Positions 3,186 to 36,726 of a stretch of DNA of 60,164 bases are shown here, piece after piece. This DNA comes from an uncultured Candidatus Poseidoniales archaeon. Its GTDB lineage: Archaea; Thermoplasmatota; Poseidoniia; Poseidoniales; Thalassarchaeaceae. The translations under genes were made by a program, and so were the position numbers. The stretch is from positions 1-60,164 of the forward strand of contig CAYMRU010000002.1 in NCBI GenBank assembly GCA_964392975.1, in the 5' to 3' direction. Each line of letters opens with the position of its first letter. Within the stretch, counting starts at the first letter, position 1. The notes beneath the pieces are model-generated. The model searched no databases. It saw only the letters and a list, made by a program, of their open reading frames with translations, and had not been told where the DNA came from.

Positions 3186-3209
3186 TGGTTACGATTAAAT
3201 GAGAAGGCC

Positions 3210-5381: not shown

Positions 5382-8300
5382 ATGATGAATGAGTATGATA
5401 CCGGCGCTGAATCGGGCCTCTCCCAGACGGGAGTCGCTTCCGTCCCAGCGGTGCTAGTTGCATTACTGGCACTGTTCTTTGGGACCGATTACGTCGCGAA
5501 CGGAGCTATGGAAAATGACGGATATACGCAAGTCCTGATTCTGCCCGTAGTAGCCTCTCTGGCTGCTGGGCTCGGCAGAATCGGTGCCTTCGCTTCCTTC
5601 GGCCAATTCTCCAAGCACAGGAGTACTGTCGTGATTCTAGGTTTCTTCTGTTCCGCAGTGGTTATCTCACTTGCCTACAACCTATTTGAGAGCGTCGGCA
5701 GACTGGGAGCTTTTACTTTCGCCTTTGTTGGCATTGTAACCTACACACTGACTCGATCTGACAGGAGAGAGGAATCCAGTATCTTCCTCTCTGTAGTAGT
5801 CGGATTCCACCTAGCAGTTTCTCATGCTGCAAACTCGGTTCTGAACTCGTCCGAATGGGCAGGTTCGGCACCTGACCTTATTGACGCTGAGAGGGCTGCC
5901 ATAGCATCTGTCTTCTTCGCTTTCTGGGCGACATCCATCGTTGCAGGCATGATTATCACTGCTCTGATGAGGAGCAGTTTGGATTCACCCGGGTCTGGAA
6001 CCTTAGGGACTCATCTGTCTGCTTCCAACAGGGTCCTCATGGTCACGCTATTGGCTATATTATTGGTGCAGACCATCCCGCTAGTTTGGTTGGGGCAACT
6101 ATCCGGAGTACAAGAGTTCGCAGATCACAAGTATCTGGGTTCGATTTGGGCATTCTTCACTACTGCTGTAGTACTCTTCGCCGCCTTCTGTCACTGCGAG
6201 AGATGGCATATGATTGGCGCACTGGTTTCTGTGAATTGGTTACTCTACACTGCAGGACATCTGCAAGAGATTGGAAACGAGTTCCCTAGCTTCCTCTCAG
6301 GCGAGGACACCATGAGTACATTCTCATGGTTCTTCATCGGTTTCTGGCTGAACGTAGCTACAATCATGGTTGCATCGCGCGGCTACTTCGGCGATGTATC
6401 TCCTCGACACGAACCGAGCCAGACACGAATCTGGTGGCAGAACAACTCCTACTCCATCATGGTAGCACTCGCGATTTTCGTCGCATTCGCAGTCAGAACT
6501 GGCTGGAACGTTCTACCGGCGATGAACGCCTCAGCTACGGGCCTGTGGGACATGACCGGAGGTTCGGACCCGTGGTACATGAAGCGAGTAGTCGATTACA
6601 TCGTTGCGGAGAGAAGCCACTACATCTTCGATCATGACAGAGCCTACCCGATGGGGGCCATCAATCCCCGTCCACCACTCTTTTCGTGGTCACTCGCTCT
6701 AGGTGGACTCGGCCTATCTTGGCTGCTGGAGATGCCTGCAGATCAGGCTACTTGGTGGAGCGTCGCTGCCATGCCAGCCGTCTTCGGCTCGCTGATTGTT
6801 CTTCCACTTGCTGCAATCGCAAAGAACATTCACAGCAAGGGCGCCGGAATCCTGACTGCCTGGCTGATAGCCCTCATGCCCGGACATATCTCGCATGCTA
6901 CATTCGGGCTTGCTGACCACGACTCGTTCGCTCTGCTTTTCCTTTCCATGGCATTCTACTACTGGGTCAGAGCAATAGAAAATCTGGGCACAGAGAGGAT
7001 GTTCCAAAATCCGAGCTCAAGTCCGCTGTATCTTCTCGCAGGAATCAGGGAGACTTGGCATAGGAATCCACTAGCTATGTCTTACGCGACCATGTCCGGA
7101 ATCTCATTCTCTACCGTAGCCCTTGGATGGAAGGGATTCGTTTACGGCCCGGGGATTCTGTTTCTGGCCTTCTCAGGACAGATAGTCCTCAATATGTTCC
7201 GCAGGAGGGACAGTTTGCCTCTCACAGCCGCCGCTCTACAGATGCTCCTAACTTGCTTCTTAATCCCATTGCCATTCTACATGTGGCCCGGGCTGAACCT
7301 CGTGTTCGACCCCAGCGGATTCCAGCCGATGTTCTACATCATCGGATTCACACTAGTTCTAGGATGGGTCGCATCATCATTCAGGGACAAGCCATGGCTA
7401 CTGGTTCTAGGAACTGGAGGTTTGATGATTGGAGGTATTCTAGCGATTCTTTATGTCCTACAGGAATTGGAGATCTATAGCGGATGGGACATTCTCTTCA
7501 CTGGAGGATTCTACTTCTCGAAGAACAAGATCTTCGGGACCATCGGAGAGGCTCAGGCCCCAAGCAGAGGAGTTCTGTTCGCATCATACGGGCCCGTGGT
7601 AGCACTGATTGCCGTCGGTTGTGCTTTCGTCTTGATGTGGAGAGGAGCTCGCAGGGAGCGCCAGAGCCATCTACTACTGGGCCTCTGGGTTATTATCGCC
7701 ACCTATATGGCGTGGTCCGCTGGCAGATTCATTTTCAACGCGACTCCCGCAATGGCAGTTGTAGGCGGAATAGGCCTAGCTATGCTCTGGCAAGGTGCAG
7801 ACTTCACTTCCTTCGTCAAGGAATGGCGTCGATCGGGCATTGGCACTCCTAGAACTAGATTCAGATCAGTTTGGCCAGCCACCAAGCGTAATCCGGCCAT
7901 TCCGACGATTCTTGTGATTCTGATGATGGTGGCATCGCAACACGCCACGTACGGAATAGACTCGGGCATCCCAAGAGGTGAGGCATCTGCTTCTGACGTC
8001 GATCAGACAATCCACGACATAGCCCCGGACTTCCTCCGAGCGGAACTTCTTGGGCTCTCAGTACTGAAGAGCGAAGGTTACAACCCAGACTCTCAGATGT
8101 GGTACATGGGCACTTTCGGACCTGGATTCAATAGCGGCTCTTGGAATCTAGCTTACGAATGGCTCTCTGAACAGGATTCTGATGTGAGCTTCAGCGAGAG
8201 ACCAGCCTTCGTATCTTGGTGGGACTATGGATTCCAAGCTCTGGCTCAAGGCCAACATCCTACAGTGGCTGACAACTTCCAGTCCGGAATCCCTCACAGC

Positions 8301-11300
8301 GGAGGGATGCTTCTTTCAAATAGCCAAGAAGACACTCTGTCTCTGTTCATCACAACATTAGCCCAAGGTGACCGGCGCTACAACGACGGCGAAGGATTCA
8401 CGGATGACTTCAGAACTGCTCTCTCTCAGCACATGTCAGAAGAACAACTTGTAGAGTATGACAGCATACTATCTATCGGAGTCAATGATGAGGACTTCGT
8501 CATTAATCGAGCTATGGCCATCGTGGCTACAGACGAACACACCGAACTCTTGCGAGGGTACGCTATCGACGAGGATGGAATTCCCCTGTCCAATGAGATG
8601 TGGAAGGTCCTTATTGGCGGCAATCAGATGGGTAACTCCACAGACAACGAGACAGAGGCTCTGGAGTTATACAACGCAACCAGGCTGAATAACGCCCAGT
8701 TCAAAATGGATACCACGCACTACTTGATTGGTGGCTACAGGTACACAAGTGACCTAATCGAGGACTTCAATGACGTTTCCACTGGACTACACAGGACTAA
8801 TGCGAAACTCGCTTTGAGCCGTGCATTCCTCTCCACTGCCTTCGACATGGATGAGTTGTCAGACATTTATCATGACATCACCGGCCTAGAGTACGAGGTC
8901 CAAGACTACCAAGGTACATTGGGCGAGACAGTAATTCGAAACAACGACATCCGGTATTTCGCAATCGACAACAGACTCTACCCTCTAGGAGGGGCATATT
9001 ATGGAGACTACCAATATCACCGTGGTCAGACCACCGGAATCTTCCACGCACCTACAGGCTTGTCGGGTCTCGATTTGGACGACTATATCACCTCAGTCTA
9101 CGAGACTCAGAGAGGCGATGGCCCAATCATCCCAAGAACCGCTGCAGAGTACGAGGAAGAATATCTGAACGATATCATCCGTCAAAGTTCTGGAGCATCA
9201 TCTGACTCGAATGAAATCATCAGGATGGTCGACATCGACTATCAGCAGCAGGCTGCCTTCTTCGAGACCATGGTTGCAAGATTCTACGTTGGCTACTCGA
9301 CATCCATGCTGGGATTACCGGGCGATGCAGAGCAACCTGCTCCTCACTTCTACATGTCTGGGGCGCCCGGTTCCTACTTGGAGAATGCATATCCTCTTCC
9401 AGGGGCAATGATGAATCACTTTGCTCTAGCCAACTGGTATGACGACGAGCGCTGCGAATTACTAGAAGATGGCAGTAAGGTAGACGAGGATTGTAACGAT
9501 CCCACAATAGGTTCTGCAAATACACAAGTCAAGATCATGAAGTACTACAGCGGTGCAACCTTGGAGGGCACCGTCGAGCTTGAAGGATCCGGACCTATAC
9601 CCAACGCGCGAATCCTGATTGAGCGCGATGCATTCAGCGGCGAAGAGGAAGCCGATGCCAACGGATATGTGGTCGATGCCGATGACAGGACTTACTGGAT
9701 TCCGATTGGATATGCCGATGCTGACGAGAATGGACGATTCTCATTCACAGTGCCAGCAGGCAAGATTCGTGTCTCTGCGTTCATCGGAGAAACGAATCTA
9801 GATGCAGCTAGGTCTTCGATGATGGCCGGCGATGTCGGGCAATTACTGGGTGACATCTTCCAAGAAACTTCCAATGACCGAATCGTGAATCCTATTACCG
9901 GAATTCTAGCCAATGTATCCGGCGCAACGTGGTTGTCTGAAACCATCGTCAACGTCTCAGGTGAAGCAGGACATAGTAACGGCGAGCAAATGGTGTTTGG
10001 AAACATCTCCGTGGAACCATCTCATGCTACTGGGTTGCTAGTTTGGTCGGGGGCCGAATTCTTCGACCAAGAGCCATTGACTGATGTAACGGTAGAGATT
10101 AGACCTTCATCAGAACGTGTTCAAATGGCCCCATACACGACCACTACCTCAAGCGGAATCGTCGAAGGTCGTGACTTGACCTTCGGAGGAATCGGTGAAG
10201 TCACATTCACCGGTGATGGCTCACTGGTTTCACAAGGAGTAGTAACAATCACCGACTTCACAGGTAATCACACCCAAACGATATCGCACAATCACAGCCT
10301 GACTGGAGATGGCCTGTTCTTAGGCAGCGGAACTCTTTCAGGAACTTTGCATGACGATGTGGAATTGGAGGAATGTGTTACCAGTATTATCTCGATAGAG
10401 ATTCAAGACGGAGGGAGTGGATACTCTACCTCTACCAACATTTCCATAGAAGGAGGCAGCGGCTCTGGCGCAACTGCTAGGGCATTCCTGATGGAAGAGA
10501 GTATTTCCGTAATCCAAATCACCAATGGCGGTACCGGTTATCACGTCGATGATATTGACAACATTACTATTTCAATCGAAGATTCTTCTGGTACTGGAGC
10601 TTTGGCCGTGGTCACCGAAATAGGTAATTCAGTTCCGAAGAACTCCTCCGTTTGCATGTTATCGGGAGGGGACTATCTGCTCTCGGGAAGCTTGAATGCA
10701 ACTGGACGATTCACTTCAGATGGGTCCTCATCATTCATTCGGAGTCTGAGTCATGCTACCCTCGTCGGATCTGGAACTTTCGAAGTAGACACTTCGGAGG
10801 AATTAGAGAGCTACGGGACCATTAATGGGACCTTCTCCAAAGTAGAGGGAGAAGGAATCTTCAGCGGACCGATGGTCCAATCTGGAACTTTCCACTTCAT
10901 AGATATAGTGCCCGGGAAATACGATATCACAGTTATCTTCGACGACGAAACCAGAGTCGATTTGGAAGAGTCATTCATCATCCCGTTAATTGGGAATCCC
11001 GAGGTTACCACTGTACGTATTTCCGGCGGCTCAATCAGCGGTTATCTACTCAATTCGACTGGCTCGCCAATAAATGAATCCATCGCCCTGCTCAAAGAAG
11101 GCGCAACCACAGCCGATGCCTCGGAGATTTGCGGCGAGTCAGACTCGACTTCGTGTCTACTGATTCCTGATGCCGATGGATTCTTCGAGTTCGGACCAAT
11201 CATACCCGGGAATTACACCGCTCAGACTGATATCGATGGAGATGGATTCCCTGAGTTATCTGAGGACTACGTGTTCGAACCCGAATCGGACCTTTCGGTC

Positions 11301-14300
11301 GAGTTCCCCTCGCCCGTTCCAGATATGTCAGACCTTACCTTCACACTGGTCGAGAATGGTAATGAAGTGAGGAATCTGGACCTCTCCATGCGACTTAAGA
11401 ACGGTACAGGAGGGCCCACAATCGTAGAATTCGATAATGAATCTGGCCACTATCTGGCTGAGCTTGCTCATGGAATTTGGATCCTGAATTACACCCTTTC
11501 CGACGAAATGCAGCTCTGGGAGCAGATTGAGATCGGCGGGGAAGACATCAGTGCTGAGTACGAGTTTGAAGTCAGTATTCGAATAAGCGGTACAGCATAC
11601 TATGAGGAGAATCTAGAGGCCCAAGAGGGACCAGATGAGGAGAAGGTGCTCGACCATGTCCCAGTCGAATTCCACTGGGATGGATTCAGTACGGCGGCAG
11701 AAACGGATGGAAGCGGGAGATTCTCCGTAGTCCTGCCAGAAGACTCCGTAGTCGATGCCACAGTTCAGCTTGCTGGAGCGATGTTGAATCTGGTTAACGG
11801 CACTAGGTTCACAGTAACTTCGGACGGACCCAGCATAGATGGAGAGGTGAAAGACAACCTGACTCTATTGGCTACTCCGGGATACTCCGTTGCAGGAGTC
11901 GTTAGCATTAATCGAGCCGATAATCCTCTGCAATCGACCTATGGAGGATGGCAGCCAATAGTGGTTGTCGCTGACAACTCTGATACCGAAGTCCGCTGGC
12001 ATGCGGATGTAATGGAGGACGGGCATTTCCAAATGGCCTTGCCAGGAGGCAATTGGTCATTCGACCTTAATGCCGACTGGATTGATTCCACTAGCGCTGA
12101 ACTGCATGTGGATGGCAAGAATGACTCAGTCGAAGTTATCGCCAGACCAATCAACAGCACCGTGTCAGTGACTCTATTTATGGATCACAGCGCCGACAAC
12201 AACGCAACAAATGGAACCGCGGTAACATACCCATTCAACATACTTGATGCATTCAACAACTCCAGAGTGGTCTACAAGGTGAGTGAAGATGGAATTGAGT
12301 GGACCGAAGATGGTCTCGCCGAAATCTCTCTCGAGCCAGGATTCTACCGTATCGACGTCTCTACATCAGACCCCGAGGAGGATTTATTCGGCACTAGGAT
12401 TATGACAGGAAAGACGCGCTTCGATGTAGGCCTACTTGGAGGAGACATAGAGAGATCCCTAGGCTTTGACCCAGAATGGAGAGTCAATATCACCTTCACC
12501 AATGAGAGCGGAGGAATCCTATCTGGGCAGCAAGTTAAGTTGATGAACAAGGAAACAGGTTGGGTGATATCTCATGATACCGATGATAATGGGGCTCTGA
12601 ATGCACACCTTCCGGAGGGAGAATGGATAGTTTCAATCCCTCCGTTTGAAACCTCACAAGGTGTCTGGGAGATTCTGAGAAATCTCATCATCTCTTCTTC
12701 AGACACTGCAGCGAATGACGTCTCACTGTCTACCTCCCAAGTCGCCGAATTTGAACTGTCTCTGTCCGAGGACTACTCCGGCGAATCGCTTGATGGAGTC
12801 TCAGTATCCCTTGAATCGCTAGAAGGCTTGGGCACAATACAAATTAATCCCACAGATGCATCTGGTTCGGTTACTGAAACCATTGCTCCAGGGAATTGGC
12901 AGGTTTCACTCAATATTACTGAGAGCGGCCAGAGGTGGATTATTGAATCCGAGAACTCCACGCTCGCAGCCTCACCAGGAGATAACCCGCGAATGAATCT
13001 TACAGCTAGTAAATATGTGGAATTGAGCGGCAATGTTTTCTGGGACTTCGATGACGATAACTCCTCGGATGTCGGCGAAGGTCTTGAGAATTCATCAGTA
13101 CGGATTGTAGGCCTAAATCACAACTACACGGCCACCACAGACAGTAGTGGCAAATGGTCGCTTTTCGTTCCCGCAGGGACATCATGGGAGATTGAGATTA
13201 CTGCAGATGGCTTCTCTTTCCAGAATGCATCTATCTCAGTCTCAGATGCCCCCGAATCGGTTGATCTCGAAATGTTTGCCCAACCGGTCCTTGTGCAGGG
13301 CACAATATCATACATCGATTCCGAGCAGTTATCATCCATTTCCGAAGGAGTCAATCTCGAATTGATTCCCGTCGAGGGACTGGTTCGAGGGACGATTATT
13401 CCAGAGAAGGAGGTCTCTGATGGCTCCTGGACTGGCAACTGGTCGGCTGAGGTCGAGCCTGGGGATTGGATTCTCAGAGCCACCTACGAGGAAGATAACC
13501 TGATTGCGATGGGACTTGTAGAGGCAGAGGTAGCCGTCGGCTATACTCTCGACCTTGAGATGACCGAGGGTGGTTGGTTCCGATTGGATACTGAATGGTT
13601 GGACTATGATGGCGCCTCTCGAACTCTAGCAGATACGAATCTCGCCGAAGCTGATATCCTAGACGAACCGAATCTAATCATAAACATCGGCTCTGGCATG
13701 GAATGGGTGCAACCCGTGAGTGAAGACGGTTCCATCGAGATGCTGATGATTCCGGGAACCATAGATACATCCAGCGAGTTTGAGGTCTCACAGAGAAATC
13801 TCACAATGTCCTACACGGGTGGACAGGGGGTCACGATTAGACCCGGCCAGGAAGCACCACCGGCCACCCTGTCTCACGTCCGAATAGCGAACCACGAAGT
13901 CTCGATTTACATCACCAACAGTTCGGGAGGAGATCCCGATTATGATGGAGAAGGAGATGATGCCAGAGCCCTAGCGAACTCTGAAGGGGGATTCGACCCA
14001 ATTGAGTTCATACTAACCGTGGATTACCTTGGTCACGAGCCGTTTGATTCATTCAATAGCTTTGGAGAAGTTTCAGGTACAGATTCGAACCTCTGGAAAG
14101 TTGAGATGCACAATGGTTCCGGAGAATGGAACAACAGCGCACAATTTGATTTGGGCCTTGACCACGTGCTAAATTTCACAGACTTACATGTTCGCGTGAC
14201 TCCGGCCAACCAATCTTCTGCTCATTCATTTACCAACGGCCACACAATTCGACTATTTTTAGCATCAACCGAAGACGGCTACATGAAAGACCATGTAGTG

Positions 14301-15113
14301 ACCGTAAAAATCCCTCAGATTCATGGTTTCAAACTCACAGAACCTATGGTGGATGTTTATGGAATCCAGCCTGGAGAGTCTATTTCTACTGGAATACAAA
14401 TTACAAATTCCGGAAATGGAGACGAGCGTTACGAGTTTGAGTTCGATGACTCGGAACTCCCAGAATATTGGGTTCGCACCGGGGCGACTTCACACACCTT
14501 GGGAGCATACGCTTCAACAACTCACAGTGTGTCAGTCACGGCTCCTGCAAACGCTTCTGACGAGGAATTCACAATCTATGTCTTGGTCAGAGATAAGGCG
14601 AATAACACATACCCCGAGATTGAAATTAACATACAGACTTCTATGCCTTCACTCCGAATAGACTCACATCAGAACTACAATGGTGGCGAGGACGCCGAGG
14701 CGGGCCAGACTGCACGGTACAACGTCGTGGTCGTGAACACCGGACTAATCGATGCTCAGCAAGTTCAGTTGAACGGTACCCTGTGCGACTCATACAGTGG
14801 TTGCCCTAGCACTTCCAGTACAGGAGTCACAGGAACCGACACACGTGACATACCCGCCAATTCTGAAGTCGTGTTTAATATCTACTTCAATCTCTCAGAT
14901 ATTAGTCCAGATACCTATTACTTCCACTTTGAGATAAACAACACAGGATTCGATTCTGTCGAGGACTACTCGATTAAAGACATCAAAGTACGCTCACCAC
15001 CCGTCGAAGGCAACTCAGAATGGATAGGATGGCTGTTGGCAGGGATGCTGATTCTAGCCTTACTCATACTGACTAGGAGAGGGGGCAGACGTAGGGGAAC
15101 GGCTCCGTTCTGA
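5382..15113 (+). CDS. aglB: giant AglB/STT3-family oligosaccharyltransferase fusion (extra N-terminal polytopic segment + AglB core + about 1750-aa extracellular beta-domain extension + C-terminal TM anchor)
   Basis: Single uninterrupted 3243-codon ORF.
- AglB core (about aa 353-1480) resembles archaeal AglB: TM1 YSIMVALAIFVAFAV, a first-loop acidic motif GGSDPWY (D396), a second acidic motif GLADHDSF, a multi-TM core, catalytic WWDYG at aa 946-950 (nt 8217-8231), and an AglB-like distal segment QVKIMKYYSGATLEG.
- N-terminal segment: about 350 aa upstream carries roughly 9 additional hydrophobic helices.
- C-terminal extension: repeated CarboxypepD_reg/Ig/CARDB-like signatures (NGRFSFTVPAGKIRVSAF, DGSGRFSVVLPEDS, SSGKWSLFVPAGTSWEIEI, ITNSGNGDERYEF, VVVVNTGLIDAQ).
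- C-terminal anchor: WIGWLLAGMLILALLIL followed by RRGGRRRG. Confidence 0.9.
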   Translation: MMNEYDTGAESGLSQTGVASVPAVLVALLALFFGTDYVANGAMENDGYTQVLILPVVASLAAGLGRIGAFASFGQFSKHRSTVVILGFFCSAVVISLAYNLFESVGRLGAFTFAFVGIVTYTLTRSDRREESSIFLSVVVGFHLAVSHAANSVLNSSEWAGSAPDLIDAERAAIASVFFAFWATSIVAGMIITALMRSSLDSPGSGTLGTHLSASNRVLMVTLLAILLVQTIPLVWLGQLSGVQEFADHKYLGSIWAFFTTAVVLFAAFCHCERWHMIGALVSVNWLLYTAGHLQEIGNEFPSFLSGEDTMSTFSWFFIGFWLNVATIMVASRGYFGDVSPRHEPSQTRIWWQNNSYSIMVALAIFVAFAVRTGWNVLPAMNASATGLWDMTGGSDPWYMKRVVDYIVAERSHYIFDHDRAYPMGAINPRPPLFSWSLALGGLGLSWLLEMPADQATWWSVAAMPAVFGSLIVLPLAAIAKNIHSKGAGILTAWLIALMPGHISHATFGLADHDSFALLFLSMAFYYWVRAIENLGTERMFQNPSSSPLYLLAGIRETWHRNPLAMSYATMSGISFSTVALGWKGFVYGPGILFLAFSGQIVLNMFRRRDSLPLTAAALQMLLTCFLIPLPFYMWPGLNLVFDPSGFQPMFYIIGFTLVLGWVASSFRDKPWLLVLGTGGLMIGGILAILYVLQELEIYSGWDILFTGGFYFSKNKIFGTIGEAQAPSRGVLFASYGPVVALIAVGCAFVLMWRGARRERQSHLLLGLWVIIATYMAWSAGRFIFNATPAMAVVGGIGLAMLWQGADFTSFVKEWRRSGIGTPRTRFRSVWPATKRNPAIPTILVILMMVASQHATYGIDSGIPRGEASASDVDQTIHDIAPDFLRAELLGLSVLKSEGYNPDSQMWYMGTFGPGFNSGSWNLAYEWLSEQDSDVSFSERPAFVSWWDYGFQALAQGQHPTVADNFQSGIPHSGGMLLSNSQEDTLSLFITTLAQGDRRYNDGEGFTDDFRTALSQHMSEEQLVEYDSILSIGVNDEDFVINRAMAIVATDEHTELLRGYAIDEDGIPLSNEMWKVLIGGNQMGNSTDNETEALELYNATRLNNAQFKMDTTHYLIGGYRYTSDLIEDFNDVSTGLHRTNAKLALSRAFLSTAFDMDELSDIYHDITGLEYEVQDYQGTLGETVIRNNDIRYFAIDNRLYPLGGAYYGDYQYHRGQTTGIFHAPTGLSGLDLDDYITSVYETQRGDGPIIPRTAAEYEEEYLNDIIRQSSGASSDSNEIIRMVDIDYQQQAAFFETMVARFYVGYSTSMLGLPGDAEQPAPHFYMSGAPGSYLENAYPLPGAMMNHFALANWYDDERCELLEDGSKVDEDCNDPTIGSANTQVKIMKYYSGATLEGTVELEGSGPIPNARILIERDAFSGEEEADANGYVVDADDRTYWIPIGYADADENGRFSFTVPAGKIRVSAFIGETNLDAARSSMMAGDVGQLLGDIFQETSNDRIVNPITGILANVSGATWLSETIVNVSGEAGHSNGEQMVFGNISVEPSHATGLLVWSGAEFFDQEPLTDVTVEIRPSSERVQMAPYTTTTSSGIVEGRDLTFGGIGEVTFTGDGSLVSQGVVTITDFTGNHTQTISHNHSLTGDGLFLGSGTLSGTLHDDVELEECVTSIISIEIQDGGSGYSTSTNISIEGGSGSGATARAFLMEESISVIQITNGGTGYHVDDIDNITISIEDSSGTGALAVVTEIGNSVPKNSSVCMLSGGDYLLSGSLNATGRFTSDGSSSFIRSLSHATLVGSGTFEVDTSEELESYGTINGTFSKVEGEGIFSGPMVQSGTFHFIDIVPGKYDITVIFDDETRVDLEESFIIPLIGNPEVTTVRISGGSISGYLLNSTGSPINESIALLKEGATTADASEICGESDSTSCLLIPDADGFFEFGPIIPGNYTAQTDIDGDGFPELSEDYVFEPESDLSVEFPSPVPDMSDLTFTLVENGNEVRNLDLSMRLKNGTGGPTIVEFDNESGHYLAELAHGIWILNYTLSDEMQLWEQIEIGGEDISAEYEFEVSIRISGTAYYEENLEAQEGPDEEKVLDHVPVEFHWDGFSTAAETDGSGRFSVVLPEDSVVDATVQLAGAMLNLVNGTRFTVTSDGPSIDGEVKDNLTLLATPGYSVAGVVSINRADNPLQSTYGGWQPIVVVADNSDTEVRWHADVMEDGHFQMALPGGNWSFDLNADWIDSTSAELHVDGKNDSVEVIARPINSTVSVTLFMDHSADNNATNGTAVTYPFNILDAFNNSRVVYKVSEDGIEWTEDGLAEISLEPGFYRIDVSTSDPEEDLFGTRIMTGKTRFDVGLLGGDIERSLGFDPEWRVNITFTNESGGILSGQQVKLMNKETGWVISHDTDDNGALNAHLPEGEWIVSIPPFETSQGVWEILRNLIISSSDTAANDVSLSTSQVAEFELSLSEDYSGESLDGVSVSLESLEGLGTIQINPTDASGSVTETIAPGNWQVSLNITESGQRWIIESENSTLAASPGDNPRMNLTASKYVELSGNVFWDFDDDNSSDVGEGLENSSVRIVGLNHNYTATTDSSGKWSLFVPAGTSWEIEITADGFSFQNASISVSDAPESVDLEMFAQPVLVQGTISYIDSEQLSSISEGVNLELIPVEGLVRGTIIPEKEVSDGSWTGNWSAEVEPGDWILRATYEEDNLIAMGLVEAEVAVGYTLDLEMTEGGWFRLDTEWLDYDGASRTLADTNLAEADILDEPNLIINIGSGMEWVQPVSEDGSIEMLMIPGTIDTSSEFEVSQRNLTMSYTGGQGVTIRPGQEAPPATLSHVRIANHEVSIYITNSSGGDPDYDGEGDDARALANSEGGFDPIEFILTVDYLGHEPFDSFNSFGEVSGTDSNLWKVEMHNGSGEWNNSAQFDLGLDHVLNFTDLHVRVTPANQSSAHSFTNGHTIRLFLASTEDGYMKDHVVTVKIPQIHGFKLTEPMVDVYGIQPGESISTGIQITNSGNGDERYEFEFDDSELPEYWVRTGATSHTLGAYASTTHSVSVTAPANASDEEFTIYVLVRDKANNTYPEIEINIQTSMPSLRIDSHQNYNGGEDAEAGQTARYNVVVVNTGLIDAQQVQLNGTLCDSYSGCPSTSSTGVTGTDTRDIPANSEVVFNIYFNLSDISPDTYYFHFEINNTGFDSVEDYSIKDIKVRSPPVEGNSEWIGWLLAGMLILALLILTRRGGRRRGTAPF

Positions 15114-15159: not shown

Positions 15160-16395
15160 ATGCCTGCCTTGGACAAGTTGGAGTTGATGCCCGAGCCAGA
15201 TGATCCCAGGATGATGACGACTGTCGACCGAGATGCCCCCGGTTATCCAGGAGATGCATACGGGCTGTCCGACGAGGCGGCTAGGCAACTGCGTTGGCCG
15301 GCAGCACCATTGAAGGAGATTCTTTGGCCATGGGGGGCCATCACCTTCGCCTTCGGTGCTGCCTTCATGCTACTTATCTGGCCTTTCATCAATGCATATC
15401 TCGCCCCGGTCCTCCCTGAGACCGAATGGGCCTTCGATTCCACAGGTATTCGCGAGCTCCAGGAGTCTGGACTCGATGGAACTGGTGTCCACGTATGCAT
15501 GGTGGATACGGGCATCGACGCAGAACACCCGGATTTCTCCAATCTCTCTTTGGTGGGATTCAGAGACTTCTACGAGGGCCAGCATGACAATATCAGAGAT
15601 GTCGGTGATGATTGGCATGGGACGATGATGGCAGGACTTCTGGTAGCAGATGGCAAGTTCCGTGGCGCAGCGCCAGGGGTAGATCTCTCAGTCGCCTTGG
15701 CCCTCGGGCCCTCTGGAACTTCAGGCCAAGAGGATATGGTGGCCCAGGCTGTACGATGGTGCAGAATTACTCAAGACGCCGACATCATCTCGCTGAGCTT
15801 AGGAACCAATCCCGGTAGCGGTATGACAGAGCAATCGCAGACCGCGAGAGCCGTGGAAGAGGCACTGGAAGCAGGAATATTCGTAGTCGCGGCAGCAGGG
15901 AACAGAGAGCCGGATGAGATGTTCTCAGACGTTTCAGTACCGGCCAATGTAGGAGGGGTTATCGCGGTCGGTTCGATTACCCGAAGCGGAGGAGTTTGGT
16001 CTCAGTCTGCAACCGGTTCAGATGTTGACCCTTACACTCAGCAGAACCGTACATATCCTGATCAGAAACCAGAGGTGTCTGCACCAGGCGTGCTATTGCT
16101 CTCCACCGCTGGGTCGACGTTGGAGCCGCCCTATGCCTATTCATCAGGTACGAGCGACTCTACAGTACTGGTCACAGGCGCCCTATCTATGATACTGCAA
16201 TTGTATGGAGAGGCCCTAGCAGGAGAGGGCGGGAAAATCGGGCCCGATGGGATGGCCATTGTCAAGAGATCTTTGGCCAGCTCCAGCGACAAATCCTCAA
16301 TCAATGGAGTCTCACACGACTCCAAAGGAGGATATGGGTCATTGGATGCAGTTCAATGGGCCGATGACGTGGCTTTCGAACTCAATGCGGCATAA
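15160..16395 (+). CDS. membrane-anchored subtilisin-like serine protease (peptidase S8)
   Basis: Catalytic triad contexts are VCMVDTGIDAEHPDF (Asp), DDWHGTMMAGLL (His) and SSGTSDSTVLVTGA (Ser), with oxyanion Asn in VVAAAGNRE. A single TM helix (AITFAFGAAFMLLIWPFINAYL) follows about 60 cytoplasmic residues. No obvious I9-type propeptide. Confidence 0.9.
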   Translation: MPALDKLELMPEPDDPRMMTTVDRDAPGYPGDAYGLSDEAARQLRWPAAPLKEILWPWGAITFAFGAAFMLLIWPFINAYLAPVLPETEWAFDSTGIRELQESGLDGTGVHVCMVDTGIDAEHPDFSNLSLVGFRDFYEGQHDNIRDVGDDWHGTMMAGLLVADGKFRGAAPGVDLSVALALGPSGTSGQEDMVAQAVRWCRITQDADIISLSLGTNPGSGMTEQSQTARAVEEALEAGIFVVAAAGNREPDEMFSDVSVPANVGGVIAVGSITRSGGVWSQSATGSDVDPYTQQNRTYPDQKPEVSAPGVLLLSTAGSTLEPPYAYSSGTSDSTVLVTGALSMILQLYGEALAGEGGKIGPDGMAIVKRSLASSSDKSSINGVSHDSKGGYGSLDAVQWADDVAFELNAA

Positions 16396-16484: not shown

Positions 16485-19400
16485 ATGACTGGAGTGCGAC
16501 GTGCTCGAAGTCACTTCCTAGTATTCTTGATGCTCAGCAGTCTATTCGTGGCCCTGATAGGGCCAGCAGCCCCAGTCTCTGCGGATAACGAGACTACGGC
16601 CGGCACAGTTTCCGGAACAGAGACTTGGTCTGGAGTGCATACTCTGACTGGAGATGTCGTGATATCTTCCGGAGCCAAACTCATCATACAGCCCGGGACC
16701 ACAGTGGTCTTCCCTAATGGGACCCATCTCGATGTCCGCGGCAATCTTTGCGCTGGAGTCTTGGCCTGCGGAGCCAACAGTGATGCTGGGACATCCCAGA
16801 AGATCACTTTCCGGTGGTCGGAGCCCGCAAACAATAGCTCGAGAGGGGAGTGCTACGGCATGAGTTATGGCAACCAACAGATATGGGTTGAAGACGCCTC
16901 TTGCTACGAGGGAGTTCTAATCAGAAACACAATCGACCTGTCTCAGACTGGACTTAGATACATCACTATAGATGGGGCTTGGGGGATTCCTTACTACATC
17001 CCCACCGTCTTTCAGTGGAGGTATGGTGCTCTAGTCATTGATGGAGCCAGCCCGGTGTTGAATGAGATTGAATTCACCAACATCAATACAACTAGCGTGC
17101 TGACGACCAATCTAGCGCAACCTCACTTCATCGGTGGAGAGTATGTCGTAGGCACTGATGATTCTAGTGGTGTTCGAGGCTCTGCTGTACAGATTTACAG
17201 TTCTGGAACCCCTGTCACGCCACTAATCCTCGAGTCGCCCAGCCTTATTGGAACCAACGTCGGATGCAGCCGACAGGCGCCAAGCAGACCAGCGGTTTGG
17301 GCCCAAGACACATTCATTGAAATCACCGATGCTGAAGTGGAAACAGGAGATTACGGCATCAGCCTGCGTAATTCAGCCGGTACAGTCAGTAACTCTGAAT
17401 TCGATGTTAATTGCAATGGAATAGACATCAACAGCCGGAAGGCGGTCGGCAACACGGATTACGAGGTCAATATCATCAACAATGAGATAACAACTGGAGA
17501 CGGTGCGCCTATCACAGTATTCCAAGGAGGACTAGCTAATATCATTGCTAATGAGATGGAGGGTGCAGGCGAATCATCCGGCATTGCCATCGAATCCAGT
17601 GAGGTCACTATTCTGAACAATGACATAGGTCCGATTGGAGGTTGGAATGGCCTTTGGATGCTTGGCTCGTTTGATGTAATCGCTGAGAACAACACTATCC
17701 ACGATGTGGCTAGGGAACCTATACGGGCAGGGGAATACGGTAGCAGCGCACCCGCACCTTCGGCATCGAGAATACTCCTTGCAAACAACACCATTTCTAC
17801 CGATGGAACCGGAACATGCAGCCAAACTAGATATGACGACTGGGACGGTGATTTCACCTGCCCCGTCGTCCACGCTTACAGGTCCGGAGTATCGATGTAC
17901 GACAATACCATCAACGCTGCAGGCGATGCAGATGGAATCAGAGCCGTGGGTGCTCTTCTGAATATTCAGAGGAACACCTTCAACGTCGCCGGGACTGGCG
18001 CGATAATGAAACACTACAACGATGGCTATGCCGGCTCTCAGCAGTACGGGACCATGGCATTCTTCTCACACAACACATGGAACGGCGTCGGGATGACCTA
18101 CAATGTCACCAAGAGCTCTGTTACGGTACAGTCCGAGTACATCCCCTCGCCTCCGCCCGATGTGTATCCGGTGCAACTGGTCTGGTCTGACCAAGAGGCA
18201 TGGCCAGCAAATCAGTTCCAGACCTCTATCGTACCTACATTCGTCAAGGAATGCCACAACTGTGCCGATTTTACTCCAATTGGATTCCCACTCTCGGTTG
18301 GTGACGGGATGGGTGTATCTTCGGCCATGGACAACAACTCGACTACGTTCACATTCGCCAATCTCTCCAATCTCGATCGCACAAAAATCCACATCGAAAC
18401 ACAACCTACTCCATATGCTGTCCAGGTTCGAAGGGCTGAGATGGTTCGCTTCCAGACATTGGTCAATGGGGAACGGGTAGAGGACGCCAACGTGCTCATC
18501 GAGGATGCTCTTGGCAACGATCTGTACTCCTTGTATACTGAGGATGATGGCTACACTCCATGGTTCGCTCTGCCCTCGGACTTCCACTTGGACATCAGAG
18601 GACTGGGAGGAGGAGACAACCCGGACGGATTCGCTGATGATCAGTACGAGGACTCATGCAGCGATGGCATCGATAATGATGGCGATCTTACAATCGATAA
18701 CGACGATGCTGACTGCGACTATCTTGCTGGGACTAGGGAACTCTCACGCTACTATTACACCGCATACAGATTCGGATCCGGATTTAACAGAGGAAACTTC
18801 ACCCTTACTGATGCCACTATGCAGGATACAATCAATCTAGTCAATCGAGCCCCAACGGTATATGTCACCCAATCGGATGGCCATTCCTTCCGAAAGGCTG
18901 TCAATCTGACAGGAAGTGCGCATGATGGCAATTTAGTAGGTGTATACGCCACAGATGAACTGGCTCAGTGGGACCAAGGGGGGTATGTTCACGAGGTCCA
19001 GATTAAAGATCCATTCACAAGCCAATGGTCAAGTGCAGGTCTGGCTGTGGACACCAGCGGCATGAGTGAGGGACTGGTCACAAAGACCAATCGTCCTTTC
19101 AGTTCGTGGTACTATGAAATGGATATGAGTAACAGGGAGGAAGGAGATTATGTCTTCGAGATCCGAGCTTTCGACGGGATAGAGTACAGTCCGATTGTTT
19201 ATCGTACGGTTAAGCTGAATGTGCAAGCCCCAACAGTATCGGTTTCTTCCCCGAGCCCATTCTCTACCCATTCAGAAGGCAGCGTCACCTTTGAAGGCAC
19301 AGCTTTCGATCACTACGGATGCCCCGTGGACTGTAGTAAGGATCTCAAAGAGATGTACTTCCACATCCAAGGCCCGAATTTCGACGTAACTACGCCAGCC

Positions 19401-20828
19401 GATGGAGGCGCCGATTGGTCATGGACTTGGGACTTCAGCGGCCTGCCTAGAGAAATCTCCACCTACACATTCACGATATGGGCCTCGGATAGTGACTTCT
19501 GCAGCGGGTACGTGGACGAATGCAATCCTGCCGAACTGACATTGACTATAGACAATTCAAACAGCCAACCATTCATCAGTCTAATTTCTCCGTACGAAGG
19601 TCAGAGATTGTCGGTTTCGACCGAGACGGTATTCGAGGGCGTAGCCAGAGACAACGACGGAAAGGTCTCCAGAGTTGACTTTGAGATTATGGATGTAGCC
19701 AACAATTTCCTTTTGGTAATCTCCGACTCGGTAACCGATTTCGCTCCTAACGGTGCTTGGTCCTTAGAGTGGGACTCAACAGTCCTTCTCCACGACAGGC
19801 AGTACCTAGTCAGGTTCAGATCTTACGATGGCTATGATTACAGTGAATGGGCTGAGGTCACAATCATTGCTGACAATCCGCCTGATGCCGGAAACTCTCA
19901 GCCCACATTCGATTCCTCAGGATGGTCCGATGAGATAGTATTGTTCTGCGAGACAAACTCCCAATCACAGGATAGGTGCACTAAAGCTGAAATCGACCTT
20001 CTACAGTTCTTCGATGATATCGACCCGGGGCAAGAACTCCTTTTGTCTGTCTATGACAGCGACGACACAGATGCCGATGACCATCACAGCATCGTCGTCA
20101 ATGTCGGCGCCGATGGCATCGCAGTGTACAATCCTGTCACTATGTTCTTCTATGACACTGACATGTCCACGTGGACTCTGGAGAACGTAGTCTTCGTTGC
20201 CACTGACACTTTCGGTTCAAAAATCAACTCTAACCCGGTCACCATGTCGGTTGAAGGCATCTTATTCACTATCATCGCGCCAGAGGACACGACCATAGGT
20301 GACAATGAGATTGCAGTTTTCACAGGAGTAGGATTGCCCGGAAAGACTGTCACAGTGACGATTGGTGGTAATAACGTCAACAACACAGTGGTCGGAGAGG
20401 ACTCGACATGGTCTCTTGGCATTCCCGCATCAAGGATTGACGGCAGCGCAATCCCTGTATTCAAGTATACCGGGGAGGAGTTCGATAGTACGGTAATTTC
20501 GGTCTCAGGCTCATCAGAAGGAGGGATGGATTTCGGGTCAATACTCCTAATCGCTATTTTGGCGCTTGTCGTACTTGGCGGTCTCGTTTACTTCTTCGTG
20601 GAATTCGAGGTCGAGGAGGACGAGATGCTAGAGGGTACAGCGGAGGCTCATCAGGATGCAGATGAGCCCGAAGACCCCTACGCTTGGGCGAAGGGTATCG
20701 AATCCGATAATGTGGAGGATGAAACTGAACCCGCGTCCAAACTCCAGAAGCACGATGATCACCCGGGGTGGTTGTGGGATCCCGATATCCAAGAGTGGGT
20801 CCCCGATCCAGAGTATCAACAGTCGTGA
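16485..20828 (+). CDS. large secreted right-handed beta-helix (PbH1/NosD-like) surface protein with Ig-like repeats and a C-terminal TM anchor
   Basis: 1447-aa ORF.
- Signal-like N-terminus: FLVFLMLSSLFVALIGPAAPVSADNE.
- Parallel beta-helix repeats: NNEITTGDGAPITVFQGG.., NEMEGAGESSGIAIESSEVTILNNDIG, NNTIHDV.., NNTISTDG.
- Cys/Asp-rich metal-binding-like motif: CSDGIDNDGDLTIDNDDADCD.
- Three or more Ig-like modules: APTVYVTQSDG.., QAPTVSVSSPSP.., SQPFISLISPYEG...
- TM helix ILLIAILALVVLGGLVYFFV and an acidic Trp-containing tail ...HPGWLWDPDIQEWVPDPEYQQS. Confidence 0.85.
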   Translation: MTGVRRARSHFLVFLMLSSLFVALIGPAAPVSADNETTAGTVSGTETWSGVHTLTGDVVISSGAKLIIQPGTTVVFPNGTHLDVRGNLCAGVLACGANSDAGTSQKITFRWSEPANNSSRGECYGMSYGNQQIWVEDASCYEGVLIRNTIDLSQTGLRYITIDGAWGIPYYIPTVFQWRYGALVIDGASPVLNEIEFTNINTTSVLTTNLAQPHFIGGEYVVGTDDSSGVRGSAVQIYSSGTPVTPLILESPSLIGTNVGCSRQAPSRPAVWAQDTFIEITDAEVETGDYGISLRNSAGTVSNSEFDVNCNGIDINSRKAVGNTDYEVNIINNEITTGDGAPITVFQGGLANIIANEMEGAGESSGIAIESSEVTILNNDIGPIGGWNGLWMLGSFDVIAENNTIHDVAREPIRAGEYGSSAPAPSASRILLANNTISTDGTGTCSQTRYDDWDGDFTCPVVHAYRSGVSMYDNTINAAGDADGIRAVGALLNIQRNTFNVAGTGAIMKHYNDGYAGSQQYGTMAFFSHNTWNGVGMTYNVTKSSVTVQSEYIPSPPPDVYPVQLVWSDQEAWPANQFQTSIVPTFVKECHNCADFTPIGFPLSVGDGMGVSSAMDNNSTTFTFANLSNLDRTKIHIETQPTPYAVQVRRAEMVRFQTLVNGERVEDANVLIEDALGNDLYSLYTEDDGYTPWFALPSDFHLDIRGLGGGDNPDGFADDQYEDSCSDGIDNDGDLTIDNDDADCDYLAGTRELSRYYYTAYRFGSGFNRGNFTLTDATMQDTINLVNRAPTVYVTQSDGHSFRKAVNLTGSAHDGNLVGVYATDELAQWDQGGYVHEVQIKDPFTSQWSSAGLAVDTSGMSEGLVTKTNRPFSSWYYEMDMSNREEGDYVFEIRAFDGIEYSPIVYRTVKLNVQAPTVSVSSPSPFSTHSEGSVTFEGTAFDHYGCPVDCSKDLKEMYFHIQGPNFDVTTPADGGADWSWTWDFSGLPREISTYTFTIWASDSDFCSGYVDECNPAELTLTIDNSNSQPFISLISPYEGQRLSVSTETVFEGVARDNDGKVSRVDFEIMDVANNFLLVISDSVTDFAPNGAWSLEWDSTVLLHDRQYLVRFRSYDGYDYSEWAEVTIIADNPPDAGNSQPTFDSSGWSDEIVLFCETNSQSQDRCTKAEIDLLQFFDDIDPGQELLLSVYDSDDTDADDHHSIVVNVGADGIAVYNPVTMFFYDTDMSTWTLENVVFVATDTFGSKINSNPVTMSVEGILFTIIAPEDTTIGDNEIAVFTGVGLPGKTVTVTIGGNNVNNTVVGEDSTWSLGIPASRIDGSAIPVFKYTGEEFDSTVISVSGSSEGGMDFGSILLIAILALVVLGGLVYFFVEFEVEEDEMLEGTAEAHQDADEPEDPYAWAKGIESDNVEDETEPASKLQKHDDHPGWLWDPDIQEWVPDPEYQQS

Positions 20829-20886
20829 TTCATTTAAGGCGCGCCTCTCACGAAACTTCTTGTGTAGATGATTACGCTCGACAAAT

Positions 20887-23415: not shown

Positions 23416-24257
23416 ATTCTGCTGACCACTCTCTCGGACTCTGACTGACCAAGCCAGTTGCTGAATTCAGGACCGCTCTGAAGAGATATCCCTATACTGC
23501 CCGAGAACCTCTCTCCCATAGCCATCAATACCTCGCTTTCAGCAAGATGCGGGGCATTGTTTTTTTCAGAGAGGTGGCACAAGACAACACTCTCTAGTCG
23601 ATTACTCACAATCTCTGAGAGGGCACCCCCAGTCTGCGTGTTAGACAGGTGACCTCCCCTACCTGAGATTCTGCGTTTGAGGGATTCCGGGTACGGGCCA
23701 CTCATCAGCCTGGTATGATCATAATTCGCCTCTATTGAGATATGGCTGCATCCAGAGAGATGTCGTAGCAAATCCACAGTCAACTCCCCTAGGTCAGTAA
23801 CTACTGCTGCCCGACGTCCATCACCATTGCTCGCAATTACGGCAACGTTGTCAGCATCATCATGAGGCACCGGAATGGGTAGCAGACTGATTTCGTCACT
23901 TACTACAATCCTCTCTAATGTTCCAAAGGTTCTGCACTCGGATATTGGTTCCCAGCCCATCCTATTCGCCGTCTCAAGATTGGAGTGAAGAGAAGCCTCC
24001 CAGTTTCTAGCTGCCCTCAGAGCAGATTTTGAGTGATCAGCGTGATGATGTGTAACAAGTATAGCATCAATCATCGAAGGCTCTACATCGACCATTCGCA
24101 GTCTGACCTCCATCTGCTTGAGAGAGAAGCCACAGTCAATTAGGACATTGGTATCTTCAGACCGGAGTAGGGTGGAGTTCCCAGCGCTCCCTGAGCCTAG
24201 ATGAGTGATTTCCATACCCATGGCGAGCGAGACGACGCCGGACCATCCTTGAACCAA
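23412..24257 (-). CDS. metallo-beta-lactamase-fold hydrolase (YycJ/PhnP/RNase-Z-like)
   Basis: Motifs are MEITHLGSGSAGNSTLL...VLIDCG and the HxHxDH motif VTHHHADHSKS, with later His/Asp ligand contexts (VPHDDADN, CHLSEKNN). The likely true start is ATG 24215 (MEITHLGSG). The stop overlaps the convergent STAND gene by 4 nt. Confidence 0.85.
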   Translation of the reverse strand: MVQGWSGVVSLAMGMEITHLGSGSAGNSTLLRSEDTNVLIDCGFSLKQMEVRLRMVDVEPSMIDAILVTHHHADHSKSALRAARNWEASLHSNLETANRMGWEPISECRTFGTLERIVVSDEISLLPIPVPHDDADNVAVIASNGDGRRAAVVTDLGELTVDLLRHLSGCSHISIEANYDHTRLMSGPYPESLKRRISGRGGHLSNTQTGGALSEIVSNRLESVVLCHLSEKNNAPHLAESEVLMAMGERFSGSIGISLQSGPEFSNWLGQSESERVVSRI

Positions 24258-24400
24258 TCCATTACATTAGTGCACTCAGACCTATTTTCGACCCACGACG
24301 GCTACGCCGTCGACCTATGCACCCGCGGGCGTGTCCGAACGACGCTCCATCATCATGATAAGTCATCCAATGGCGCTGAGTTCATCAATCGGGTGAAACC

Positions 24401-30109: not shown

Positions 30110-30139
30110 GTTCTTGAGCCACGGCTCCCACGCGAGCGC

Positions 30140-31026: not shown

Positions 31027-32013
31027 GTGTCCGAGGCTAGATTGCTGATTACAGCATTCCCTCCTTTCTCTAATCATGCAACCAATGTCTCTCAGATGGT
31101 GCTGAGAGAGATGAGGAGATTGGGGGCCGACAAGATAGGTGCTGAGATGTGCATCCTCAGCGTTGACCAGAAGGGATCGGATGAAGTCGCACAAAGGATT
31201 CTGAAAGGTGAAGAATTCCAAGGTATCATCCACCTTGGTCTCGCAGCCAATAGGGATAGGATAAACTTGGAGAGAAAGGCCAGAAATCGGATTTCGATGT
31301 CAGAGCCTGACAACTCAGGGCGTTTAGTCCAGTCAGAACTTGCAGTAATCGACGGCCTAGAGAGTCTTGAGACCACAGCCCCGATTCACATTTTGGATGA
31401 GGAGTTCGAACACGATGATTCAGTCGAATGGAGCTCCGACGCTGGAGGTTTTGTTTGCAATGAGACATACTACAAGACGCTGAATGCCCTTCATGCAATT
31501 GAAGACTCCACTACTCCAGCCCTCTTCGTACACCTTCCGCCTGAGGAGTCAATTCCGGTTGATACACAGGCGAAGAAAGTAATGAGAATAGCATCATCGA
31601 TGATTTCGAAGCCGACATACGAAGTAGTCGCAGCCCTGTTGTTTGACGAGAATGGTAGGATTCTGGCTTGCAAGAGGCCTAGCCAAGATGCGTGGGCTGG
31701 TTGGTGGGAGTTCCCAGGAGGCAAAGTGGACGAGGGCGAGTCTGCCACACAAGCCCTCTCTAGGGAGCTTGAGGAGGAAATCGGGATTTCTGTCAGCCCC
31801 GATTATTTGGTCGAGTCTTCGACTTTCGACTACGAAGATCGCACGGTCAGGTTGCAGATCTGGAACTGTGGAGAAATCGAACCGGACTCAGTCATTTTGA
31901 GAGAGCACGATGAATCGAGATGGTTATCGAAGGAAGATCTGATGGAAGTCAAGTGGCTGCCAGCTGATCTTCCTATAATTGCCAGATGGCACAAAGAAGG
32001 CATCCCGAACTAA
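31027..32013 (+). CDS. fusion protein: pyrrolidone-carboxylate (pyroglutamyl) peptidase-like domain + MutT/Nudix hydrolase domain
   Basis: - Peptidase C15 (aa 1 to about 195): LLITAFPPFSNHATN, HLGLAANRDRINLERKARN (Glu), SDAGGFVCNETYYKTL (Cys), ALFVHLP (His).
- Nudix (about aa 197-328): a complete Nudix box GKVDEGESATQALSRELEEEIGI (GX5EX7REUXEEXGU) at nt 31720-31788, preceded by WWEFPGG, which is typical of MutT. Confidence 0.85.
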   Translation: MSEARLLITAFPPFSNHATNVSQMVLREMRRLGADKIGAEMCILSVDQKGSDEVAQRILKGEEFQGIIHLGLAANRDRINLERKARNRISMSEPDNSGRLVQSELAVIDGLESLETTAPIHILDEEFEHDDSVEWSSDAGGFVCNETYYKTLNALHAIEDSTTPALFVHLPPEESIPVDTQAKKVMRIASSMISKPTYEVVAALLFDENGRILACKRPSQDAWAGWWEFPGGKVDEGESATQALSRELEEEIGISVSPDYLVESSTFDYEDRTVRLQIWNCGEIEPDSVILREHDESRWLSKEDLMEVKWLPADLPIIARWHKEGIPN

Positions 32014-36702: not shown

Positions 36703-36726
36703 GCGAACCGCGTCAGTGCGAAGCGT

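Follow-up and report, generated by a model that had tools for sequence, protein, structure and literature searches.

Does a single open reading frame (ORF) that joins an AglB/STT3-type oligosaccharyltransferase (OST) to two large additional parts encode one real protein, and what might such a protein do? The question is raised by a 60,164-nucleotide stretch of DNA from an uncultured Candidatus Poseidoniales archaeon (contig CAYMRU010000002.1 of assembly GCA_964392975.1, positions 1 to 60,164; hereafter the window). An earlier note, made from the letters of this stretch, had drawn attention to a frame of 3,243 amino acids (aa), which we refer to as the giant AglB and which is laid out as follows.

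5382..15113, + strand: the whole giant AglB gene (3,243 aa), a single uninterrupted ORF
5382..6449, + strand: N-terminal module (aa 1–356), a predicted 10-helix membrane bundle (AlphaFold2 (AF2) and hydropathy)
6450..7949, + strand: STT3/AglB transmembrane domain (aa 357–856; PF02516, TIGR04154 and hydropathy)
7950..9551, + strand: extracellular catalytic domain (aa 857–1390), enlarged by insertions (profile and Pfam matches)
9552..15011, + strand: extension (aa ~1391–3210), an array of prealbumin/transthyretin-like and Ig/CARDB-like beta-sandwiches (Pfam, PDB profile and Foldseek)
15018..15110, + strand: C-terminal anchor (aa 3213–3231; hydropathy 2.04–2.54) and basic tail (aa 3232–3243) ending in APF

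We find that this tripartite layout of ~3,200 residues is fixed across the order Poseidoniales. The reading that we favour, with a probability of roughly 0.7, is that the gene encodes the AglB OST of Marine Group II archaea (Poseidoniales), equipped with a doubly tethered, glycosylated structural stalk outside the cell and an accessory N-terminal membrane module.

The ORF is unbroken from end to end, as the earlier note had stated; a check for a split within it found none, and base composition is even along the entire gene. The protein has 24 predicted transmembrane segments, with 10 in the N-terminal module, 13 in the core and 1 at the C terminus. A search of 5.8 billion proteins returned 428 matches. 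Among the best 120 of these, almost all are giants of 3,100–3,340 aa, the shorter ones being partial, and many cover 98–100% of the query at identities down to 42%. Divergent clusters (3,146–3,194 aa) retain all parts of the protein. Per 100 aa, identity to the query is 0.35–0.47 in the N-terminal module, 0.45–0.84 in the core and 0.32–0.59 in the extension. The BLAST coverage of ~51% that is read for some homologues is due to an 83-aa insert (aa 1668–1750, described below), which breaks the local alignment.

A scan of one genome per species, with the N-terminal module as the query, detected the module in 123 species genomes. The 80 that are listed are all Poseidoniales, Thermoplasmatota or generically named archaeal metagenome-assembled genomes (MAGs), and the nearest in the collection is a Candidatus Thalassarchaeum (Marine Group IIb, Poseidoniales), with 78% identity over the module. 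The earlier note had proposed that orthologues be compared for fused versus separate genes, and this comparison returned the same fusion in ~50 independently assembled species genomes. In these fetched loci, which have enough DNA and come from many studies, the longest ORF is unbroken, spans 3,147–3,316 codons and ends in ...RRxxAPF. Six further loci (L006, L010, L015, L024, L027 and L051, the last of which contains masked bases) have a shorter longest ORF despite a continuing contig; most simply, these interruptions are probably MAG errors, with pseudogenes as the alternative. The invariance of motifs and of the C-terminal tail reported below was scored on 29 aligned sequences, comprising the query and 28 full-length relatives.

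The part of the protein between aa 357 and ~1390 resembles STT3 enzymes by several measures. Pfam STT3 (PF02516) scores 58 bits over aa 365–797 (cut-off 24.5; E = 1.6e-15), and the NCBIfam model TIGR04154 (archaeosortase A-associated archaeal STT3) matches aa 359–984 (E = 1.1e-45). Among PDB sequences, phmmer ranks human STT3A (7e-9) highest, followed by Archaeoglobus fulgidus AglB-L (2.5e-8). The helix count of the core comes from hydropathy only, which shows 13 hydrophobic segments from aa 355 to aa 856 and a soluble stretch after them; a strongly basic loop (aa 811–837) lies just before the last of these helices (aa 838–856). Four motifs of the active site are found in this part of the protein.

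6567..6569, + strand: D396, first-loop catalytic acidic residue in GGSDPWY
6915..6923, + strand: D512-H-D514, second acidic, DxD-type motif
7539..7550, + strand: T720-I-G-E723, TIxE motif of external loop 5 (EL5)
8217..8231, + strand: WWDYG (aa 946–950), sequon Ser/Thr-binding motif, an exact match

D396 corresponds to D49 of STT3A in the alignment, D512-H-D514 is aligned to the D-N-E of STT3A, and WWDYG aligns with the WWDYG of both STT3A and A. fulgidus AglB-S. The TIxE sequence, which we take to be the archaeal and eukaryotic EL5 motif of OSTs, lies between hydrophobic segments 9 and 10. D396, D512, D514 and the whole of WWDYG are invariant (29/29), as are T720, I721 and E723, and the EL5 loop FGTIGEAQAP is identical in all sequences printed. 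The DPWY (D396), GLADHDSF and WWDYG (nt 8217–8231) motifs named in the earlier note are all in place, with ADHDS at aa 511, and the WWDYG region, which it had proposed to check, scores as STT3.

Beyond the last core helix, a profile of the catalytic domain matches the C-terminal domains of short A. fulgidus AglBs in the PDB (3vu0 and 3vgp, E = 2.5e-6) over the surroundings of WWDYG only, and Pfam returns a weak AglB_core-like match at aa 940–983. One of the insertions, an alpha/beta insert at aa ~990–1170, is well predicted by AF2 (pLDDT 75–89 for aa ~1000–1110). The catalytic domain is the most conserved part of the giant AglB, with 0.45–0.81 identity per 100 aa to the query. By its metal- and acceptor-binding motifs, the core appears to be a standard 13-helix STT3/AglB that is catalytically intact.

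From aa ~1391 onward the protein is predicted to be beta-rich (AF2). Matches of the prealbumin/transthyretin-like kind come first, and Ig-like ones (Big_13, DUF11, CARDB and choice-of-anchor T) follow towards the C terminus. The best single domain is

13074..13265, + strand: CarboxypepD_reg (PF13620), aa 2565–2628, E = 7.4e-14

and the whole-protein score for this family is 52.3 bits against a cut-off of 32.3. Further matches in the extension (to CarboxypepD_reg, SpaA, NOMO_5th, DUF4493, DUF4198, Big_13, DUF11 and CARDB) are below the Pfam cut-offs, so that of the CarboxypepD_reg, Ig and CARDB domains named in the earlier note, the first passes its threshold whereas CARDB and the others stay under theirs. 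The extension itself is present as that note had described, but it starts near aa 1391 rather than 1500. The segment VKIMKYYSGATLEG at aa 1383, which had been taken for a distal part of AglB, has no AglB-specific score and instead opens the first transthyretin/CarboxypepD_reg-like domain, for which there is a weak match at aa ~1393–1466 (E = 0.011) and a DUF4198 match at aa 1387–1459. A profile of aa 811–2010 gave a weak match to NOMO2 in the PDB (9c7v, E = 1e-3). Internal repeats within the extension amount to weak, old similarities at aa ~2000–2700. The extension is acidic (D+E 16%, K+R 3.8%), and across the order it keeps 40–53% identity to the query at a near-constant length that varies by a few per cent. 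Pfam searches found no ligand-binding or lectin domain in it.

The C-terminal transmembrane segment at aa 3213–3231 is followed directly by RRGGRRRG, in agreement with the second anchor and Arg-rich stretch described in the earlier note. All 29 aligned sequences have a transmembrane segment with a basic tail ending in ...APF, as do those ORFs of the species genomes that are complete; the terminal ...RRxxAPF is almost invariant, and more divergent members end in ...(P/R)F. A comparison with PGF-CTERM signals found the transmembrane helix and basic tail and no PGF motif, and the C terminus has no LPxTG-type sortase signal. That the final Phe is conserved suggests a signal for recognition or sorting. 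We also considered the APF tail as a signal shared within the window and rejected this idea, as no other ORF there ends in ...APF.

The distribution of N-x-S/T sequons sets the extension apart from the rest of the protein. Of the 52 sequons in the giant AglB, 45 fall in aa 1501–3210, where composition-preserving shuffles give an expectation of 17.3 ± 3.7 (z = 7.5), which bears out the sequon richness of the extension reported in the earlier note; aa 811–1500 have 3, with 4.5 expected. For the other large secreted proteins of the window, the corresponding z values are 0.1, −0.9 and 3.1. Homologues carry 25–55 sequons in the extension and 5–13 in the rest of the protein, and more divergent family members carry 38–64 and 4–8, respectively. 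Among columns with a conserved Asn, those in which half or more of the sequences have a sequon number 27/44 in the extension and 3/35 elsewhere. Because sequons exceed the shuffled expectation and their positions are conserved, we conclude that the pattern reflects selection for predicted glycosylation sites, not composition.

One segment of the extension is specific to a few lineages.

10383..10631, + strand: lineage-specific 83-aa insert (aa 1668–1750), from the alignment of 29 sequences

It consists of two ~40-aa units with the pattern 'I.I..GG.GY...I.I...G.GA.A', matches no Pfam family and is limited, among the 29 aligned sequences, to the query, P0001, P0016 and P0020, being absent from otherwise close relatives (79–86% identity). 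Other lineages have different inserts immediately before a VKI(L/M)KYYSGA segment.

The N-terminal module (aa 1–356) has no detectable relative outside this protein family. A confident AF2 model built on a 13-sequence alignment has 10 transmembrane helices (pLDDT 79, pTM 0.77), and hydropathy also gives ~10 segments; the additional helices described in the earlier note are therefore real, although its 'roughly nine' becomes 10. With this number of helices, the N terminus and the start of STT3 helix 1 would both lie on the cytoplasmic side, and the loop charges (6 K/R inside versus 1 outside) are a weak fit to a cytoplasmic N terminus. Twenty-eight positions are invariant, including E130, R171, R197, E273, W275, N285, W286 and E296-I-G, and some of these residues are charged and lie within or beside helices. 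That note had been unable to assign the module, and our searches likewise returned no relative in sequence or fold: Pfam, run on the query and 13 family members, gave no family; a profile against PDB sequences gave nothing below E = 0.18; and Foldseek with the AF2 model against the PDB gave a best E of 0.44 and TM-scores of at most 0.21. Against 1.84 billion representative proteins, the profile found 57 matches, all of which are giants (3,146–3,228 aa) or shorter pieces, and the shorter pieces that were looked up come from short contigs or are marked as partial. The module therefore exists solely as the N terminus of this protein family. Three ideas about its nature were considered and dropped. 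An internal repeat was rejected when hhalign of the two halves found none, a duplicate of the STT3 membrane domain was rejected by hhalign against that domain, and an archaeosortase- or exosortase-like identity, considered because of a conserved FC(H/R)xE(R/G)WH motif, found no support.

Members of the family are already present in databases under the labels 'STT3 domain-containing protein', 'dolichyl-phosphooligosaccharide-protein glycotransferase' and 'hypothetical protein'. One appears in a published supplement (PMC9723583) as gene 305 of MAG SIMO Bin 19-2 (MGIIb genus O1), at 27778–37315 (9,538 nt), labelled 'AglB' and annotated with COG1287, GT66 at 9.3e-75 and, as its seed orthologue, MG2_1283 of the 2012 MGII genome. 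In the rows of that MAG contained in the part of the supplement consulted, gene 305 has purD on one side and an S8 peptidase called 'halolysin' on the other, no other entry carries COG1287, and gene 305 is the only significant GT66 match among those shown; it is also transcribed, with non-zero metatranscriptome coverage and a log2 fold change of 2.05 in O1-active samples (PMC9723583). The giant AglB is thus probably the only OST of these archaea. In the openly accessible full-text literature that was searched, we found no discussion of the size or architecture of the giant AglB, PMC9723583 included, and no paper connecting AglB with Marine Group II or Poseidoniales. The earlier note knew of no description of such an architecture, and we found no paper that discusses it; the three-part architecture is apparently undescribed, although the gene itself has already been labelled AglB/STT3.

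The arrangement that the earlier note had proposed, with an AglB core lying between the N-terminal module and a sequon-rich beta extension with a second anchor, is the one that we find, and it suggests how the protein might work. With 10 + 13 helices, the catalytic domain and all of the extension would be on the outside of the cell, and the last helix would return the Arg-rich tail to the cytoplasm, such that aa 857–3212 (~2,350 residues) would form a single extracellular loop tethered at both ends. A lipid-linked glycan would be transferred to sequon Asn residues, as by other AglBs, and the extension may itself receive N-glycans, either from its own catalytic centre or from a neighbouring one. 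Coated with glycans, the extension would then stand on the cell surface as a stalk or arch of fixed length, which might act as an envelope spacer or as a scaffold that positions the enzyme within the envelope. In the weakest step of this proposal, the N-terminal module would most likely be a built-in accessory membrane subunit that handles the lipid-linked donor or docks the enzyme to membrane machinery. A bolder version, which we regard as speculative and unlikely, would make the protein a one-chain glycosylation and envelope machine: a self-glycosylated, doubly anchored pillar or arch serving as a main structural element of the envelope (an S-layer equivalent or its support), with the N-terminal module as a new fold for donor flipping or recycling.

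Several observations weigh against an enzyme with a glycosylated stalk and an accessory module. Although TIGR04154 is matched with a strong E value, its score is 156.3 bits against a cut-off of 450, with model positions 2–575 of 831 matched. Because this score is far under the cut-off, the giant AglB is, as judged from its sequence, a relative of the TIGR04154 subfamily and not a member, and represents a divergent AglB lineage. The pocket motif DK/MI (DxxKxxxM/I or MI) could not be located by sequence. The PDB profile alignment used in this hunt reached only ~70 residues close to WWDYG, and a conserved helix, FFETMVARxYVGY (aa ~1293–1305), is a candidate whose register gives no clean DK or MI. 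The AF2 model of aa 811–2010 is poor (pLDDT 54.7), and the fold assignment of the extension consists of domain-level hints from weak hidden Markov model matches and low-TM-score Foldseek hits. None of the searches gave a homology clue to the role of the N-terminal module. Finally, the proposal that this is the only OST is based on the published annotation of one MAG.

The neighbourhood of the gene was compared in three divergent loci (L001–L003), in which gene order is the same and is conserved over at least 25 kb. The shared order is a 563-aa protein (opposite strand), CarS, PurD, the giant AglB, an S8 subtilase, a ~1,400-aa beta-helix protein, an AAA/TPR protein, a metallo-beta-lactamase-fold protein and a ~1,900-aa protein. 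The CarS gene, a short way upstream of the giant gene, encodes CDP-archaeol synthase and thereby marks the host as an archaeon. In the window, the features around the giant gene are

15160..16395, + strand: membrane-anchored S8 subtilase (Pfam Peptidase_S8, E = 2.8e-37)
16485..30109, + strand: conserved block after the subtilase, with the same genes in L001–L003
1494..3185, − strand: 563-aa protein with a signal peptide and a C-terminal transmembrane segment, matching no Pfam family

The subtilase has ~50 cytoplasmic residues followed by a signal-anchor helix at aa ~54–85 and is therefore predicted to be an extracellular protease tethered to the membrane. Its gene comes immediately after the giant gene in the three divergent orthologous loci and in the published MAG table, and it is a possible candidate for an enzyme that processes the giant protein. 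The block that follows contains a 1,447-aa secreted beta-helix/Big_7 protein, an 842-aa AAA_16 and TPR (STAND-like) protein, a metallo-beta-lactamase-fold protein on the opposite strand and a 1,902-aa secreted protein with 26 sequons versus 15.5 expected (z = 3.1). A gene of 542–573 aa occupies the position equivalent to that of the 563-aa protein, upstream of CarS, in L001–L003.

Two features further along the window are recorded here for context.

31027..32013, + strand: one ORF with a Peptidase_C15 pyroglutamyl peptidase (aa 5–178) and a NUDIX hydrolase (aa 200–318), an unusual pairing
52221..56981, + strand: 1,586-aa secreted S8 subtilase with CARDB, a second large surface protease in the window

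The latter shows no sequon enrichment (10 versus 12.9 expected). Searches of the window for tRNAs and Rfam families found no feature.

Other explanations for the giant AglB differ in how well they fit these data. An assembly chimera or a missed frameshift could in principle have joined separate genes, and the six species loci with a shorter ORF (L006, L010, L015, L024, L027 and L051) might be taken to point that way. Yet the same unbroken ORF with the same C-terminal motif recurs in ~50 independent assemblies, the family comprises at least 120 clusters of ~3,150–3,340 aa, some found on many contigs and many aligned over their full length, and base composition does not change across the gene; for practical purposes, an artefact is refuted. 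The protein could instead have lost its STT3 activity and become a purely structural, inactive scaffold, in keeping with the low TIGR04154 score and the lack of a recognisable DK/MI motif. This is very improbable, given that none of the metal- and acceptor-binding motifs varies among 29 sequences, that EL5 shows no difference between those printed, that conservation within the protein is highest in the catalytic region, and that the gene is the sole COG1287 gene among the rows consulted of the one published MAG table (PMC9723583).

The remaining alternatives concern the extension. It might be an adhesin that binds particles, polymers or other cells, to which the AglB fusion would be incidental. 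Foldseek with the model of aa 811–2010 matched CnaB-type Gram-positive pilins and MSCRAMM B domains (BcpA at 4e-7, the lowest E value, SpaA and SdrD), and there are weak Pfam matches to SpaA, CARDB and DUF11; the query model, however, is of low confidence and the TM-scores are at most 0.4. Both ends of the extension, moreover, are tethered in the membrane, its length varies by a few per cent at 40–53% identity to the query across the order, and it has neither tandem repeat expansions nor a ligand-binding or lectin domain recognisable by Pfam. Because length is near-invariant, identity is maintained, repeats have not expanded and no binding module is found, a fixed structural stalk is the most likely reading of the extension and a variable, ligand-binding adhesin is improbable. 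Likelier among the alternatives, though still unlikely, is a polyprotein, the extracellular part of which is cleaved (for example, near aa 1390) into an AglB of conventional size and a C-terminally anchored, glycosylated, S-layer-like protein, with the subtilase as the processor. A signal-anchored S8 subtilase is indeed encoded directly downstream in every locus examined, the extension's own transmembrane anchor would hold it on the cell after cleavage, and the first transthyretin-like domain starts right at the boundary near aa 1391. But the synteny of at least 25 kb includes unrelated housekeeping genes (CarS and PurD), and because it does, the adjacency of the subtilase is only a weak sign that the two are functionally linked. 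We identified no conserved cleavage motif, and the gene is never split in ~50 genomes, which suggests selection for a physical link between the parts, at least during biogenesis.

The doubly tethered enzyme with a structural stalk resembles several known systems in part. It shares with A. fulgidus AglB-L (868 aa; PDB 3WAJ/5GMY) the 13-segment STT3 membrane domain, the first-loop Asp, the DxD-type motif, the TIxE of EL5 and a WWDYG in the extracellular domain past the last helix. It differs in being ~3.7 times longer, in having an extra 10-helix N-terminal module, a catalytic extracellular domain enlarged by insertions, an additional ~1,800-aa beta extension and a second membrane anchor, and in lacking a DK/MI motif recognisable by sequence and a TIGR04154 score near the cut-off. 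The last residue of AfAglB-L is 868, and its P1 unit spans 777–868 (bioRxiv 10.1101/2020.08.18.256065). The catalytic core also matches that of the eukaryotic OST (STT3A/B, ribophorins and OST48; PDB 6S7O) motif for motif, and the two are alike in concept, as both join a catalytic subunit to additional membrane helices and to large non-catalytic domains on the lumenal or extracellular side. In the eukaryotic OST, however, the additional parts are separate subunits, whereas in the giant AglB they are fused in one chain, and searches by PDB sequence and profile, Foldseek and Pfam found no homology of the N-terminal module or the extension to OST accessory subunits.

The extension, in turn, recalls NOMO, a component of the BOS complex in the multipass translocon of the endoplasmic reticulum (PDB 9C7V), which likewise has a non-cytoplasmic chain of transthyretin/CarboxypepD_reg-like domains and a C-terminal transmembrane helix. 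The sequence signals are weak (9c7v at E = 1e-3; Pfam NOMO_5th at E = 0.029) and below curated cut-offs; NOMO has no enzyme fusion, and the likeness is that of a widespread domain family, with no sign of specific common ancestry. Tandem CnaB/prealbumin-like beta-sandwiches, the best Foldseek matches, also build the stalks of Gram-positive pilins and MSCRAMM B repeats (BcpA 3KPT, SpaA and SdrD). Unlike these, the giant AglB has no sortase signal and is anchored at both ends, and the likeness comes with low TM-scores from a low-confidence model. Archaeal S-layer glycoproteins such as that of Haloferax volcanii are acidic, Ig-like multidomain proteins that are heavily N-glycosylated and tethered at the C terminus, and the extension is comparable in these respects. 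We found no sequence match between it and S-layer glycoproteins, and the two differ in that the giant protein ends in ...RRxxAPF without PGF-CTERM and that S-layer proteins are not fused to an OST.

Poseidoniales are among the most abundant archaea of the surface ocean and are uncultured, and to our knowledge almost nothing is known about their cell envelope. Our data indicate that N-glycosylation in these archaea may be physically coupled to a surface structure outside the cell and to a further membrane function inside it, as the layout of both additions is kept as strictly as that of the enzyme. The N-terminal module is a candidate for a new membrane protein family, and its connection to a well-understood enzyme offers a handle on its function. 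With the giant AglB, the size range known for catalytic subunits of OSTs grows approximately threefold, and the protein offers a natural single-chain analogue of the multi-subunit eukaryotic OST.

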